Part shown: piece by piece, positions 58,362 through 63,811 of the stretch
Position numbering within the stretch: position 1 is the stretch's first letter
How the letters are laid out: each line of letters begins with the position of its first letter
Assembly: GCA_965208905.1 (NCBI GenBank)
Contig: OZ242365.1
Location: forward strand, 1,600,001-1,664,000
Source of the DNA: Nitrosopumilaceae archaeon
Lineage (GTDB): Archaea > Thermoproteota > Nitrososphaeria > Nitrososphaerales > Nitrosopumilaceae
Direction: 5' to 3'
Length of the DNA stretch: 64,000 nucleotides
Program-made: the position numbers and the translations under genes
Notes under the pieces: model-generated
The model's database searches: none
Told to the model about the DNA's origin: nothing
The model's input: only the letters and a program-made list of their open reading frames with translations

Positions 58362-58460
58362 GTACATCTGAGATGAAACCCCCCAGCCCCATTGAAGTAG
58401 AACATAATTCATAAACTATGTACGCTGTTGAGTGTACCAGTAGTGAACGCCCACTCTCCA
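58362..58460 (+). CRISPR. Degenerate solitary repeat-spacer unit
   Basis: 37-nt repeat-like ending CCCCATTGAAGT, then a segment nearly identical to the reverse complement of 61879-61903. Confidence 0.6.
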
Positions 58461-58517
58461 AGACAACCGGGCCTACGGGCGGTAACCCAAAAACGGGGCG
58501 CCACACAATACTACAGT

Positions 58518-61202
58518 ATGACTGAGATGTACGTCGTAGGGAGTAGTGGGGCGCCCCGCGCCAGTGGCTTTGCCATGGCATCGATCATGATGTTGCTGCC
58601 GATGATTGCGGGCGTGGTGGCAACGCTGGTAGTATCGTGGGGCGGCTTTATAGAGACCGCCTTCATGGACATGACGCTGAGCCTGGAGGGGTTTGACTAC
58701 AAGTTTGGCCCAGCCAAATGCAACGGCGAGTGGAAGGAGTGCGGCAACGCCACATTTGACGTATACGTGCAGTCAAGAAATCTGTCCATCATGCTGTTTA
58801 TTCTGGCGCTGGTGTTTGTGGCAATAAAGGACATGCTGAGCGCCGGCTTTGACGGCAATATCAGCATGGATGTGGCGGACAACAAAAGCCTCCCCGAACT
58901 TCTCAAGTATTCGGTATTGGTCTTTGTCGTGCTGTTTATCTTCCCGCCCATATGGGATGTTGCGGCAGGTACGATGAACAACGTAGGCGTTTGGATTCTA
59001 AACCCCCACTATAATATTGCGGGGAGCGGCGGTTCGTACACACCCGGCCAGACGCAGGATGCGATGTGCACCGGTATAATTACCTTTGAGGATCTGGCCG
59101 CGCTGGCGCCGGTCGTGCGCAATGCGGACGAGTGGGCCGTATACCAGAACGGGGATGCCGGCCCGCTCGACAACGGCGCTACCGTACCGCACAGGTTCGC
59201 CACAAACATGATTATACAGAAGGGGGAGGTGTTGTCCAACCAGTGCCTGAACCAGGGCATGGACTGTCCAAGTACAATATCCAACCGGCCCCCCGACAAG
59301 CAGTTGGGCGACATACTGTGCAATCCCGACCTGCGCGTAAAGTACGTATTCCAGCAGGCACTCAGCGTAACGGAGACCGAGCCCGCCAATGCCGAGGAGA
59401 TACTGGGCTCGGTAACGGGCAACATCGGCGATGATATTCTCGTAGGGATATTTACGCAGTTCCTAAAGGGTTCAGTGACGATACAGGTGATTATGGTGAC
59501 GTTTATGGTGGGGGTGATGGTGGATGTCGTTACCGCGTTTGCGCTTGCTATCTTGCCGGTGGTGTTCTTTTACCGCTTCCTGCCGATGTCGGGCAAGATA
59601 AAGCTCGGCGATTATTCTGGCGCGGCCTTTGCATTGTTGGCGATGCCGATGATTGCATCCATCATACTGGTTGCGGGTTCTGGTGCGGTTGCGGTCATGG
59701 CCGCCGAGCATCAGGACTTTGCGTCGTTCTTTGTGTGGCTGGCGGCCTTGTCGGTAGTATTGCTTGTGATTGGCATACCGTCTACGATGGTTCCCCTGAT
59801 AGGCGCGGCAACCGCGCAGGCCACGGCTGCAGTTCAGACCGGCGTGCAGACCGCGCAGTTTGCGGTGACTGCCGCGGGCGCGGCCGCAAGCGGGGCGATA
59901 CGGGGACGTGCGCAGTACAGGGCGGGCATGGGAGACTATGCAGGCCTGAAGGGAATGGATAGAAGCAAGATGAGCGCGGCGCAGGTGGCAAGGCTTGATC
60001 AGCTCAAGAAGGAGGGGCATGGCGGCAGGTTTGGCGCGGCGCGCGCGGCGTTTGGCGGCGCTTCGGGCGGACTGCGGGGCGAGATATATGACGACAAGGG
60101 GCAGTTCAGGAAGGAGTTCAGGAATGTCGGGATGCCCGATACGGGCAAACTGCAGGAGGGGTCATTGAGAGGTCTGGGAATGAACGTGGATTCGGGAGCT
60201 CTCCGGGACTCTGCGGCACTTACTACTACTGCGATGCAGGCAAGCCAGGCAGTCGGGCAAAGTGCTATACAGCAGGCATCGGATGCCAAGTGGGATAAGG
60301 AGAAGGAGGCGGCAAAACGACAGGAGGAGGCAAGGCAGGCCGAGGGAAGGGTCAAGACGTCGCAACATATGCAGGATACCACGCATCAGGTTGTCCGGGA
60401 GGCATATGAGTCAGATGATCGTACCAAGACGCTTGTGCAGCAGTCGGAGGTGATTGACGGCCACAAGGCTCGGCTGGAGGGTGCGCAGAAGAATGACAAA
60501 AATCTTATCAGGGGGTGGCAGAGGGCTGTCGGCGAGCACGCGGAGGTCAAAGGACAGCACGAGGCCGCCTGGGGCGAGGTAAAACCTGAGGATGCGGCCG
60601 CGTACAGGAATCTGAAGGATGATGTTGCTGTCAGGGAATCCCGGATTGCACAGATGGGTGCAGAACACAAGGCCGAGATGGAGCAGATGAAAGACGAAGG
60701 CGCTTCACTTGGTGATATTGCACTTCGGCAGGAGGATATGAGTGCCCAGATAGAGAATCTCCGGACTGAGCATGCCAACACTCAGGGTGAGTTGAAGACG
60801 ATGCTGCGGGAGAACGAGAATCTGGGCAAGGCTGCCGGGCTGGACGACTCGCTTGCGCAGTCAGAGGAAGCGATGGAGAAGGCCAAAAAGACCATGGACA
60901 ATAACCAGGCGAATATTGCAAAATTGAATGGTATGTTGGGGGAGCAACGGGCCGAGTACGGACGGTCTTTGCATTACATGGCCGGTATGGCCGGCGCGCT
61001 ATCACCCCAAGTTGCGAATGCCGTGCTGTCGGAGCGGGCGACCTGGGATGCGCTGCAGGAGGCTGAGGCTGATTATAATACTAAATCACTGGTCAGTGAG
61101 TATACACGAGAGGGTGTAATCTTGGATCAGGGAGCTAACCAGCCGGGTGAGTCAAAGAATAAGGAGGGGGATAAGCCGAAACGCCGATTTGTACAGAGGT
61201 GA
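58518..61202 (+). CDS. VirB6/TrbL-like membrane protein with long coiled-coil tail (paralog 2)
   Basis: Multiple TMs, PPIWD, LCNPDLRVKY, Ala/Gly linker, coiled coil; start 29 nt after the A-tract box. Confidence 0.7.
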   Translation: MTEMYVVGSSGAPRASGFAMASIMMLLPMIAGVVATLVVSWGGFIETAFMDMTLSLEGFDYKFGPAKCNGEWKECGNATFDVYVQSRNLSIMLFILALVFVAIKDMLSAGFDGNISMDVADNKSLPELLKYSVLVFVVLFIFPPIWDVAAGTMNNVGVWILNPHYNIAGSGGSYTPGQTQDAMCTGIITFEDLAALAPVVRNADEWAVYQNGDAGPLDNGATVPHRFATNMIIQKGEVLSNQCLNQGMDCPSTISNRPPDKQLGDILCNPDLRVKYVFQQALSVTETEPANAEEILGSVTGNIGDDILVGIFTQFLKGSVTIQVIMVTFMVGVMVDVVTAFALAILPVVFFYRFLPMSGKIKLGDYSGAAFALLAMPMIASIILVAGSGAVAVMAAEHQDFASFFVWLAALSVVLLVIGIPSTMVPLIGAATAQATAAVQTGVQTAQFAVTAAGAAASGAIRGRAQYRAGMGDYAGLKGMDRSKMSAAQVARLDQLKKEGHGGRFGAARAAFGGASGGLRGEIYDDKGQFRKEFRNVGMPDTGKLQEGSLRGLGMNVDSGALRDSAALTTTAMQASQAVGQSAIQQASDAKWDKEKEAAKRQEEARQAEGRVKTSQHMQDTTHQVVREAYESDDRTKTLVQQSEVIDGHKARLEGAQKNDKNLIRGWQRAVGEHAEVKGQHEAAWGEVKPEDAAAYRNLKDDVAVRESRIAQMGAEHKAEMEQMKDEGASLGDIALRQEDMSAQIENLRTEHANTQGELKTMLRENENLGKAAGLDDSLAQSEEAMEKAKKTMDNNQANIAKLNGMLGEQRAEYGRSLHYMAGMAGALSPQVANAVLSERATWDALQEAEADYNTKSLVSEYTREGVILDQGANQPGESKNKEGDKPKRRFVQR

Positions 61203-61221
61203 TAGTCAACTCCAACAGAAA

Positions 61222-61596
61222 TCAGGTGTGCTTGAAAACCATGTCCGGCATTCCAAACCCGTACACGTATCCCGGCAGCGGCTTCTCTTCCATATTCGTC
61301 TCAAGTTTGTTGTGATTGTGGATGTAGCCCTCATTGCCAGTGTAGAGTATCTTATACCATTCACGCACATCAATCCCTAACTCCTTTGCATTTTTTTGGT
61401 TTTCTGGGTCATGGCACCATCCATTGTAGTTGAGGATATCCCGGTATTTGCCTGGTATTTTTTCAAGCTCTGCTTCAAACCGCTTACCTTCCTCATCCGT
61501 CCAGTCCTCGGGGTTTTTTCCCTTCAGGTGCGCCCTCTCGACTGTAATGTCAAACATCTTTAACGACTTGATATGTTCTTCTTCGCTTGGGTACAT
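61222..61596 (-). CDS. Hypothetical protein (MYPSEEEHIK...)
   Basis: ATG 28 nt after CCTTATA; the listed upstream extension runs through the repeats. Confidence 0.7.
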   Translation of the reverse strand: MYPSEEEHIKSLKMFDITVERAHLKGKNPEDWTDEEGKRFEAELEKIPGKYRDILNYNGWCHDPENQKNAKELGIDVREWYKILYTGNEGYIHNHNKLETNMEEKPLPGYVYGFGMPDMVFKHT

Positions 61597-61631
61597 GTTG
61601 TTGTTTAGTACCCATCCCATATAAGGGACTA

Positions 61632-61967
61632 ATTTCAATGGGCCGGGGGCTTTTGCCCCCAGAAAGGATGAAGAAGTCACACGAGGCCGAGATTGAGAAG
61701 ATACTTCAATGGGGCCGGAGGTTTTCACCCCCGGAAAGACTGTGAATACTTCCATCATCCTGTTGTTCACCCCGTCCAACATAGTAATCATCACGTTTAA
61801 GGTTCCATATAACAACGTACATAATGTATGAATCATGGTCTACTTCAATGGGGCCGGGGACGTTCACCCCAGACACCCTCAACAACGTACATAGTTTATG
61901 AATCTCATTTCAATCTGGTCGGGGGTTTCACTCCCAACATACTCAACAACGTACATAAGATATGAAT
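61632..61967 (-). CRISPR. Orphan degenerate CRISPR mini-array with type I-G-like repeats
   Basis: Repeats 61632-61668, 61703-61740, 61842-61877, 61907-61942 (best GTCTTTCCGGGGGTGAAAACCTCCGGCCCCATTGAAGT); 34-nt spacer 61669-61702; no cas genes in window. Confidence 0.75.
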
Positions 61968-62030
61968 GGTGGTTCGCCGCCAACATCTGTTGTACTGGGC
62001 GCAAGCCCAACTGTACAACAGGCTGGCATC

Positions 62031-62918
62031 TTACGTTAACTTACCGGTTCCCTTACGCTTTGCTCGGTCTAGTGGCTGAAGTTTAGAGCGTAGGATGTTC
62101 TCAAACTCATGGCGTTTTATACGTTCGGCTGCAAGCAGTTTGGTGGTTGAGTCTTCCAGGGGCAACACTTCCCAATGCCGTACCTCAAGATTGCGTTTCT
62201 CTGACACGCCAACCACCAACCATATAATGTCGCCCTCGTTAATGTCATGAGATGGTTTGTTGCTAGCTCCACCAACAGCCTCAAAAAAGTTCTCGTCCAT
62301 AGCCACGGCCATCTTGGTCCCCCATTGTCGTAGCATGGGAACCTTTGTTTGGAGTTGCGGCATGAGCCGCTTTGCGCCGGATGAGCGCCAGTCGGGGCGA
62401 CGGAGTCTGTTTGGATATGGTGGTTTGTTCTGATTATCCTGTTCAAGAATCTCAAACTCTATTGACATGTTAGGGCCTGAGAAGTAAACTGCTTGTATTT
62501 CCAATCCATACCACTTGGGTCCGTCCTTGCCATCGGCCAGCACTAAATCTATGAGGCCCGCCGCCTTGTTTGTTGTTGGCGACCGCATGAATGGCACCTC
62601 ACGCGCTATGAACGACTTTGACTTATCAAATTTCACCACGCTTGCTAGATGTTTTAGAATTGTATCATCCTGATCGAATCTCTGCGGGCATAATATGACC
62701 GGGCTTCCTACTGGCTTGCCTAGACGGTCACCGTCCTGTTCGTATTCTTGAAATGAACAGACGCCTCCCCTTTTCCCACAAGCAACACTACCAGCCTGAA
62801 ACGGGCACTTGGGCGGGGTTGCCTTCTGTGAAACAATTTTTGCCAGTTCTTGGCGACGTTTCGGAGGCATTACGGCGAACGGTTCCCCAAACCACTCCAT
62901 TATTCCATAGCGCGTCAT
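62031..62918 (-). CDS. NotI-family restriction endonuclease
   Basis: EWFG, CPF..C.K.GGVCS, CPQRF Cys cluster, IDLVL, LEIQAVYFSG, RPDW. Confidence 0.8.
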   Translation of the reverse strand: MTRYGIMEWFGEPFAVMPPKRRQELAKIVSQKATPPKCPFQAGSVACGKRGGVCSFQEYEQDGDRLGKPVGSPVILCPQRFDQDDTILKHLASVVKFDKSKSFIAREVPFMRSPTTNKAAGLIDLVLADGKDGPKWYGLEIQAVYFSGPNMSIEFEILEQDNQNKPPYPNRLRRPDWRSSGAKRLMPQLQTKVPMLRQWGTKMAVAMDENFFEAVGGASNKPSHDINEGDIIWLVVGVSEKRNLEVRHWEVLPLEDSTTKLLAAERIKRHEFENILRSKLQPLDRAKRKGTGKLT

Positions 62919-63811
62919 TGGAACAATGGCTCCCTAGTTATCACAAGCTCCGGTATCGTGTTGTGGTGGGCGTTGTGCATGAACACACATACCGCATGGA
63001 ATCGATGTTCCCGCACGAGGTCGGCAATTTCGGGAGAGCAATCATAGGTCATGAGGAAGTTCATGTCCGAATCTGCCAGCAGGTCAAAGAGTCTCAGGTG
63101 GTCTATCTCACTATGGGCATACAGGCGACTACCCGCCCGTTTGCCCCCGGCGGTGTACGGCGGGTCTAGGAACAATGCCTCGTTATCGTTTCTGTGTACC
63201 AATGATTCGATAGTATGCATCCCGTCACCCTCCCGGAATACAATTCGGTCAGCATGGTTGGATATGTCGGACAAACGCCGGATCAATGTTTCTGGGTACC
63301 ATCTGGACTGTATTCCCTTTCCATTCTCCCCATGCTTCACAAACGACGCGCCCGGCGCCAATATGCCGGAGTTCCGTGTCCTGTTGAGTACCAGCGTCCT
63401 AAACCCACTGGTTTCTTGTAGCTCGATTGTGGACACATTCTCCAATGTGGGTTGAAACTGCGAGATAAACTGAATCAGGGCATCCGTACTATACAGGGCA
63501 TCCCGCCAGAATGCGGCCACGTCCCGATCAAGCTCTACCATGACGCAGTGTTCAACCAACCCCTCCATGATTGCGGTAAGCGGCACTATGCCGCCTCCAA
63601 CAAATGGATCCACCAACATGTGTGGTTTCGTCTTATCTAACCACTCTCGGATGTGTGGTATGAGCCACGTCTTCCCTCCCGGGTATCGTAGTGGACTTCG
63701 TTGTGGTATGGTGGAGACGTTGACGGCCGGAAACCGTGAGATCGGGAATTCCATGCTTATGGCCATACATATCTTCTTGGTGTTCCTTTTTTTAAGGTTT
63801 GACGGCCTCAT
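62915..63811 (-). CDS. D12-class DNA methyltransferase
   Basis: SPLRYPGGK, DPFVGGG, DPPY; coupled to nuclease. Confidence 0.9.
   Translation of the reverse strand: MRPSNLKKRNTKKICMAISMEFPISRFPAVNVSTIPQRSPLRYPGGKTWLIPHIREWLDKTKPHMLVDPFVGGGIVPLTAIMEGLVEHCVMVELDRDVAAFWRDALYSTDALIQFISQFQPTLENVSTIELQETSGFRTLVLNRTRNSGILAPGASFVKHGENGKGIQSRWYPETLIRRLSDISNHADRIVFREGDGMHTIESLVHRNDNEALFLDPPYTAGGKRAGSRLYAHSEIDHLRLFDLLADSDMNFLMTYDCSPEIADLVREHRFHAVCVFMHNAHHNTIPELVITREPLFQ

Follow-up and report, generated by a model that had tools for sequence, protein, structure and literature searches.

We analysed a 64,000-nt stretch of the genome of a Nitrosopumilaceae archaeon (the window; positions 1,600,001-1,664,000 of a single 2.21-Mb contig, OZ242365.1) and found on its minus strand a one-spacer CRISPR array, composed of a type I-G repeat (R3), a 36-nt spacer and a degenerate terminal repeat (R4). 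The array has no cas genes of its own and lies beside a gene for a large VirB6/TrbL-like membrane protein (P0001), a sister allele of which appears to be the source of the spacer. The reading that we favour, with a probability of roughly 0.6, is that this cas-less type I-G mini-array would use the machinery of the host to keep sister elements out.

The array borders were drawn in the frame of the repeat of the host's own array (Table 1). R4 starts exactly 36 nt past R3 on the same strand, keeps the stem and the tail, ends in AAAT and is identical to R3 at 29 of 36 positions. The minus strand of 61980-61630 contains hairpin units ending in CC(C)ATTGAA(G/A)T. In the predicted 148-nt transcript both hairpins form (z = -3.29), that of R4 being present in the minimum free energy fold. 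An earlier description of this DNA made from the letters alone (the first-pass annotation) had proposed two hairpin repeats flanking a unique spacer; strand, place and the unique sequence between the repeats were confirmed, and the lengths were redrawn to 36 and 35 nt for the repeats and 36 nt for the spacer. A strict scan for the hairpin plus tail across the 2.2-Mb genome outside the main array returned only four units (R1-R4), all of them in this cluster, and the same scan of the reversed genome, serving as a control, returned none. Searches of the window against Rfam and for transfer RNAs (tRNAs) yielded no matches.

The type I-G-like character of the repeats, likewise proposed before, is borne out by a covariance model and by a host array of the same design. 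The model was derived from seven genuine array repeats of six species of the genus, leaving out the mini-array units, and was run unfiltered over the whole window, where it gave six matches at E<=10, with R3 at E=1.9e-8 and the best four listed in Table 1. The type I-G unit of the genus comprises 36 nt, consisting of TTTCCG, a 7-bp stem-loop and CGGCCCC followed by ATTGAAGC, and R3 fits this unit. R3 and the host repeat have in common the 5' TTTCCG, the 7-bp stem and the 3' CGGCCCCATTGAAG, and differ in the inner stem and loop by compensating changes; the arrays of sister species in the genus carry further variants on the one repeat design. In an alignment of ten units both sides change in four of the seven stem pairs, corresponding to a covariation score of 0.444 versus 0.26 for shuffles (matched by 1 of 500 shuffles), some rows of this alignment standing one column out and lowering the paired share to 77%. 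All repeat variants retain the invariant stem base and the flanks on either side. Judged by these features, the mini-array repeats are members of the type I-G repeat family of the genus.

A k-mer scan of the contig located one large CRISPR array at 981,218-990,483, comprising 128 repeats, 127 of them identical, and 127 spacers of 34-40 nt (36 nt in 46 and 37 nt in 45). Its leader side holds Cas4g/Cas1g (725 bits) and Cas2, and its other side Cas3g (605 bits), a Cas8g2-like protein (100.8 bits, under the cut-off of 125), Cas7g/Csb1 and Csb2. This type I-G locus, which the first-pass annotation had missed, also provides the related repeats expected in the host. Family searches of the whole genome returned a single Cas1, a single Csb2 and a single Cas7g, all at 979-997 kb, making this the sole cas locus, ~665 kb from the mini-array. 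The mini-array is thus an orphan, as had been suggested, because the only Cas1, Csb2 and Cas7g of the genome sit that far off; neither the 35 large open reading frames (ORFs) of the window, in agreement with the earlier claim, nor the 42 ORFs of the 56 kb past it yielded a cas gene. For the host Csb2 (genome 995026-997086; 686 aa), the C-terminal, Cas6-like half of the Csb2 model matches twice, at 995860-996357 and 996397-997065, which suggests a duplication of the Cas6-like domain.

The promoter-like box noted earlier upstream of the repeats was found 64 nt before R3, and its motif behaves as a promoter element throughout the genome. Among 208 CCTTAAA boxes, 36 have the ATG of an ORF of at least 80 aa exactly 30-31 nt downstream, compared to a mean of 1.8 per offset over the 50 offsets tested. 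Because ORF starts peak at this distance, we regard CCTTAAA as a promoter element of leaderless genes, and its geometry predicts a transcript start at ~61772, 34 nt before R3. More generally, across the whole genome the ATGs that open ORFs peak sharply at +30/+31 from CCTTAAA, TTTATAT and TTCATAA, with minus-strand boxes in the window at 63797, 61802 and 61626; many genes thus appear to lack a leader and to use the box as their TATA element.

The spacer leads to the neighbouring gene. We took ATG 58518 as the start of P0001 because its homologue P0003 begins there. P0001 has no Pfam family; for its N-terminal membrane part the ESM Atlas leads to TrbL_4 / VirB6-like clusters (0.86-0.89), as a lead only. 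Nucleotides 1-24 of the spacer match 21/24 at 60688-60665, 1 kb from the array and inside this gene, and no other place in the genome reaches 21/24. As a control, a match of at least 21/24 anywhere in the genome exists for only 4 of the 127 host spacers, and a match so near the array is unlikely by chance, by our own estimate of the order of 1e-4 or less. The protospacer, which the first-pass annotation had not seen in the window, is therefore present in partial form. A hand count gives identity to the spacer at 25/36 positions, the mismatches falling on guide positions 5, 9, 20 and 25-32. Elsewhere in the genome the spacer has no full-length match at <=10 mismatches.

Read on the plus strand in the frame of P0001, the spacer encodes MKKSHEAEIEK, where the island's own gene has MGAEHKAEMEQ. 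When the C-terminal part of P0001 was searched against 5.8 billion proteins, 8000 candidates were scored and a single one, P0003, was a non-self homologue; it is identical to P0001 at 724/894 positions (81%). P0003 carries an 11-residue insertion and, precisely at the spacer site, reads ...DIKKSHEAEIERVK..., in which KKSHEAEIE equals the reading of the spacer, i.e. nine consecutive residues where the own gene has GAEHKAEME. We further compared Logan contigs of four public runs (X5-X8) with 58400-62050. One X7 contig (record 16, 721 nt) lies on 60222-60331 and 60398-60685 and then goes on, in the same orientation, from 61667 onward, i.e. on the spacer; its spacer side comprises 33 letters, for which the depth in the two bins is consistent with 27 + 6 nt. 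In X5, 75 letters (60690-60766) are replaced by 141, and the additional 66 nt correspond in length to P0003's two 11-residue insertions. Together, P0003, X7 and X5 indicate that other samples contain sister alleles bearing a spacer-like segment.

The flank of the site is consistent with a type I-G target. Since a lysine codon (AAR) stands past the site in the own gene as well as in P0003, the guide-like strand has 5'-TTN immediately ahead of the protospacer, with TTC in the own copy, providing a protospacer-adjacent motif (PAM). The spacer adjoins the R3 handle with its PAM-proximal end, as it should if inserted by a type I adaptation complex. These comparisons directly support, at the sequence level, that the spacer derives from the adjacent gene in a sister allele rather than from the island's own allele. 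Of the two targets suggested in the first-pass annotation, the rival element is thus favoured by the sister allele match, whereas a host gene gains no support, the spacer having no other match in the genome.

The type I-G system of Thioalkalivibrio sulfidiphilus offers a template for how such an array could act. It has a 36-nt repeat with a 7-bp stem, which Csb2 cuts 4 nt past the stem to leave an 8-nt 5' handle, a processed unit of 72 nt and a TTN PAM, as given in the cited sections of PMC9638904; the PAM has also been reported as GAA on the other strand. R3, spacer and R4 would yield a unit of 8 + 36 + 28 = 72 nt, as published, and their 36-nt repeat and 36-nt spacer also fit the geometry of the host array. 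The present system resembles that of T. sulfidiphilus in repeat, hairpin, handle, unit size, PAM and the Cas5-Cas6 fusion Csb2. It differs in that the mini-array stands alone and far from cas genes, that the host large subunit is of the Cas8g2 type (below the family cut-off) and that the host Csb2 has 686 aa with two Cas6-like matches.

With the array anatomy, the repeat family, the complete host type I-G system, the geometry of the promoter motif and the origin of the spacer, including PAM and orientation, observed in the sequences compared, we infer transcription, Csb2 processing, loading and interference in the resident host as follows. The CCTTAAA promoter would start a transcript ~34 nt before R3, and the host Csb2 would bind the hairpins of R3 and R4 and cut 4 nt past each stem. 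The 72-nt guide released in this way, comprising the 8-nt handle AUUGAAGU, the 36-nt spacer and a 28-nt part of the R4 hairpin, would load into the host type I-G Cascade and pair with a segment, variable and duplicated in tandem, that lies in the coiled-coil tail of the sister elements' VirB6/TrbL-like gene. At a target site with a TTN PAM, Cas3g would then destroy the incoming sister element, while the own allele would be spared by its differences at 11/36 positions, including positions 5 and 9 of the seed.

Several observations weigh against this proposal. The repeats are not those of the resident host. R3 is identical at 24/36 positions to the resident repeat and at 30/36 to the array repeat of a sister species (G009), and R4 at 21/36 and 26/36, respectively, so that both lie nearer to G009. 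In a search of 200 other family genomes the R3 type was matched by the arrays of G009 and G001 alone, at <=86%. Because the identity to the resident repeat is just 24/36 and 21/36, the use of the resident host's Cascade can only be inferred. Likewise, processing in the resident host is uncertain because the repeats diverge and the resident Csb2 is only ~30% identical to the Csb2 of G009 and G001 over the Cas6-like part; cross-processing is plausible, if unproven, because the invariant stem base and the flanks are kept in all variants. R4 is degenerate, and by eye the sequence upstream of R3 showed no likeness to the host or G009 leaders. RNA evidence extends to neither R3 nor the spacer: the contigs of a metatranscriptome (X6), which may hold DNA, cover 61180-61654, and their lack of cover over R3 and the spacer is uninformative.

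The target is subject to similar reservations. By codon count P0003 can match the spacer at 32/36 positions at most, and the X7 piece, whose per-base identity is not displayed, seems to stop ~3 nt short of the PAM-proximal end; hence no sequenced allele can be called a perfect target. The exact 36-nt spacer had no match in the collections viral_contigs, metagenome_contigs and genome_contigs, and at <=3 mismatches none in 400 other genomes of the order, which include four of the nine genus relatives, or in all nine of these relatives. The two sister loci of G009 with the same gene pair carry no array upstream of the small ORF that follows R4 here. A search for related loci gave no relative in viral_contigs, metagenome_contigs or genome_contigs, and one for shorter protein fragments gave none. 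Homologues of P0001 occur in G009 (two loci) and G003 with 48-58% identity, contain no spacer-like site (best, 14-15 mismatches/36) and likewise lack an array ahead of the small ORF. None of the 127 host spacers matched the own genome beyond chance (best, 22/24) and none matched the island, and the host array gave repeat-driven matches only against the genus genomes. The G006, G001 and G009 arrays supplied 129 spacers, which gave, against the genome and three sister loci, one partial match of 18/18, which we took as chance, so that no empirical PAM could be derived.

Many of these observations would also suit a decaying relic, i.e. a fragment of a type I-G array gained by recombination from a G009-like array and now unused, an explanation that we consider rather unlikely. 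The degeneration of R4 and R2 and the failure of R1 to match the repeat model (Table 1), the difference of the repeats from the resident ones together with the distance of the resident Csb2 from the G009 type, the absence of the array at the syntenic G009 loci and the lack of a perfect target in any collection searched all point in its direction. Against a relic speak both stems, kept by compensating changes, the intact handle and a promoter box at a sensible distance, and the resemblance of the sister alleles to the spacer, from which the own allele differs, fits ongoing selection.

The clustering of solitary units raises the question of whether the hairpins themselves could act. In a two-handed counter-immunity module of a conjugative island, formed by the entire 350-nt cluster, which seems improbable, the diverged, promoter-driven hairpins would titrate Csb2 while the R3-R4 guide would exclude sister islands, the diverged repeats working across the type I-G variants of the genus and escaping the notice of resident adaptation. 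Slightly less probable still is a pure RNA decoy resembling anti-CRISPRs, in which R1, R2, Rx, R3, R4 and the unit at 58363-58398 would soak up Csb2 and Cas7g and shield the island from the 127-spacer array of the host, the 36 nt between R3 and R4 being incidental. Such a role would be in line with the several solitary degenerate units in a cluster, each ~30 nt past a TATA-like box, with the tight binding of Csb2 of another type I-G system to its cut hairpin (reported in the cited part of PMC9638904), and with the solitary repeat units of viruses that are known inhibitors according to the sections cited from PMC10651486 and PMC11656645. A pure decoy, however, needs neither an interval of host-typical spacer length nor a source that can be traced, with PAM and orientation both correct, and because 0/127 host spacers match the island there is no visible pressure for one.

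We regard it as very improbable that the array encodes a self-regulatory guide of the CreA or CRISPR RNA-like kind, with which Cascade would sit on the island's own VirB6/TrbL-like gene without Cas3 and damp a conjugation gene. The own site does offer a TTC PAM and a PAM-proximal match of 21/24 with an unmatched distal third. CreTA is an example of a regulator with degenerate repeats. Degenerate repeats are described as typical of such regulators in the cited part of a preprint (bioRxiv 10.1101/2024.10.29.618823). The mismatches, however, fall on seed positions 5 and 9, the site lies ~2.2 kb inside the coding region rather than at a repressed promoter, where a CreA-like guide would match partially, and the sister allele accounts far better for all 36 nt. 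Neither the R3-R4 guide nor the other six candidate guides had a seed match to the host cas locus. That the repeats are part of a 204-aa protein starting at 61836 is scarcely credible: the frame is open from there through R3, spacer and R4 into the small ORF, but the G009 homologues align only with residues 91-199 and a CCTTATA box stands exactly 30 nt before the internal ATG 61596, which is why we take the array region as not coding, and the open stretch has no family match while R3 fits the CRISPR repeat model.

Among known systems, the mini-array favoured here matches by analogy the pattern of element-borne mini-arrays directed against sister elements, with the host-unlike repeats as an unusual trait. 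It has one spacer of host-typical length and no adjacent cas genes, and the spacer resembles a related element (the P0003 peptide and ~33 nt in X7) while the own site agrees at 25/36. Element-borne mini-arrays are described in the cited section of PMC11656645 as having repeats identical or nearly identical to those of the host, which is not the case for R3 and R4. The mini-arrays of the Saccharolobus portogloboviruses SPV1 and SPV2 target a nearby gene of close relatives, the own locus being mutated or deleted, and a survey cited in the same source reports this pattern for phages (PMC6858448, in the sections cited). As far as these sections go, the systems are alike in having one or two spacers, no cas genes, an element as carrier (here a mobile-looking island), a promoter (here predicted), a relative-directed spacer and an altered own locus. 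They differ in that the carrier here is an integrated conjugative-element-like island, the type is I-G, the archaeon is mesophilic, the repeats are 58-67% identical to those of the host and no host-like leader was seen; reciprocal targeting and competition would be hypothetical here.

The thaumarchaeal integrative and conjugative elements NCAV2-E1 and NitIsl-E1 carry cas-less arrays together with TFIIB, VirB4, VirB6 and TadC, as described in the cited part of PMC6563490. The present mobile-looking island resembles them in element type and has in common with them TFIIB/VirB4/VirB6/TadC-like genes, a cas-less array and a presumed reliance on a chromosomal system. Their arrays, however, contain 69-96 spacers and type I-B repeats equal to those of the host array, and the cited part identifies no sister target, whereas here one spacer with an identified source gene is combined with host-diverged type I-G repeats. 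RNA anti-CRISPRs and solitary repeat units (PMC10651486) are similar as repeat mimics on mobile elements, several units here being solitary and degenerate; in contrast, R3 and R4 enclose a genuine spacer, inhibition is only hypothetical here, and the cited part of that source gives no type I-G case. What appears to be new in the present case, based on the alleles compared, is the source of the spacer in a sister allele of the adjacent VirB6/TrbL-like gene. Mini-arrays against competitors have been documented mainly in Sulfolobales viruses and phages; if the proposal holds, the present case would widen the strategy to include type I-G, an island of conjugative type and an archaeon with relatives of which sequences occur in sponge and marine metagenomes. 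The target could be named as well, as a quickly varying tract, duplicated in tandem, in the tail part of the VirB6/TrbL-like gene. As the repeats do not belong to the resident host, the case also raises the question of how much repeat divergence Csb2 tolerates and whether such arrays work across species. In practical terms, it provides a defined guide, PAM and target for reconstituting a little-studied type I-G variant.

Table 1 Positions of the array, its neighbouring genes and related units in the window
Feature	Position	Strand	Remarks
R3, near-canonical type I-G repeat	61738-61703 (36 nt)	-	7-bp stem, then CCCC, then 8-nt handle ATTGAAGT; covariance model 39.6 bits, E=1.9e-8
Spacer	61702-61667 (36 nt)	-	34 nt of the first-pass annotation plus 2
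R4, degenerate terminal repeat	61666-61632 (35 nt)	-	8-bp stem, one C fewer, tail ATTGAAAT; covariance model 13.2 bits, E=0.39 (weak alone)
R2, degenerate solitary unit	61877-61842	-	covariance model 16.8 bits, E=0.039; strict hairpin scan
R1, more degenerate unit	61942-61907	-	strict hairpin scan; no covariance match at E<=10
Rx, decayed unit in the predicted leader	~61783-61748	-	by eye, TATGTTGG...GGGGTGAAC...GGAAGT in common with R1/R2; no model match
Degenerate repeat-like unit upstream of P0001	58363-58398	+	covariance model 13.2 bits, E=0.4 (58364-58398)
~29-nt motif ATTCATA...TATGTACGTTGTT, three copies	61973-61811	-	before R1, before R2, after R2; each with TATA-like TTCATA
Promoter-like box ACCTTAAACG	61803-61794 (core CCTTAAA 61802-61796)	-	64 nt upstream of R3
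CCTTATA box	61626-61620	-	directly past R4; exactly 30 nt before ATG 61596
Small ORF, 124 aa	ATG 61596, ends 61222	-	no family match
P0001 gene, large VirB6/TrbL-like membrane protein with coiled-coil tail	58518-61202	+	spacer source and putative target gene
Own mismatched protospacer copy	60688-60653	-	inside the P0001 gene; 5'-TTC flank 60691-60689

The region holds more units than R3 and R4; R1, R2 and the decayed unit Rx had gone unnoticed in the first-pass annotation. Versions of the ~29-nt motif (ATTCATA...TATGTACGTTGTTGAG) precede R1 and R2 and come after R2 and the 58363-58398 unit, in the latter case as ATTCATA...TGTACGCTGTTGAG. Genome-wide, ORF starts peak at +31 from TTCATAA (10 versus a mean of 1.7), and by this geometry transcripts would begin with the first base of the stem in the hairpin that comes next. 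A model including the solitary units gave 135 matches in the whole genome, consisting of the 128 array repeats and seven seed units. Two more solitary, degenerate type I-G-like units lie further away. The one at genome 2,130,860-2,130,895 (plus strand) is followed by a CCTTAAA box, arranged as R4 and CCTTATA, and a 22-aa frame behind it was rejected as a homologue of the small ORF; the other, at genome 2,104,281-2,104,316 (minus strand), adjoins a 21-residue fragment like the C-terminus of the small ORF. The solitary units could be Csb2 decoys, relics of tandem duplication or recombination points.

Contigs of the public runs also depart from the window at repeat-like sequence. Two X8 contigs on R3 go on at 61704 with ~37 other letters instead of this spacer, and the X8 depth peaks over R3, which suggests that this sample contains arrays in which R3-type repeats stand with other spacers. 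An X8 contig runs from 58452 straight to 61227 and omits the entire P0001 gene, with 21 repeat-tail-like letters in between. The window itself contains a decayed tail-like string CCAACAGAAAT past the P0001 stop (61203-61227) and the repeat-like unit on the upstream side (58363-58452), and contigs of X5 and X7 show rearranged joints at the same places flanking the gene. This suggests that the repeat-like units flanking P0001 mark borders of recombination or of a cassette.

In its gene content the carrier of the array resembles a conjugative-element-like, mobile-looking island. From ~16 kb onwards the window encodes an MCM protein, a VirB4/HerA-like ATPase, an IS66 transposase, MmeI-type and NotI restriction-modification systems, two more standalone DNA methylases and a DUF499-DUF1156-helicase operon, and the next 56 kb contain three more TFIIB homologues, TadC-like and primase-like genes, TnpB, and IS110 and rve transposases. 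The run from 21465 to 54584 is dense in defence-type genes, comprising the MmeI-type enzyme, two GHKL/HATPase proteins, C5 and D12 methylases, the operon of DUF499, DUF1156 methylase and SNF2 helicase/NOV_C, and IS66, beside MCM and the VirB4/HerA-like ATPase. A PF00589 tyrosine recombinase had no match at E<=0.001 in the whole, 99.6%-complete genome and was present in 14/14 control genomes. On the far side, 0.5 kb past the window (genome 1664528-1664679), ARAGORN calls adjacent tRNA-Ser (ACT) and tRNA-Arg (TCG) genes, the ACT anticodon being odd, and a tRNA-Met gene 8 kb further (genome 1672832-1672904); the tRNA genes could mark the border of the island or be borne by the element. Finally, a 36-nt palindrome, TGTTGTAC...GTACAACA, lies at 61985-62020 of the window, just past the NotI-like gene. 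It has ~8 more partial copies scattered through the genome and looks like a repetitive extragenic palindrome or miniature inverted-repeat transposable element, or a terminator; contigs of other runs break at its borders.

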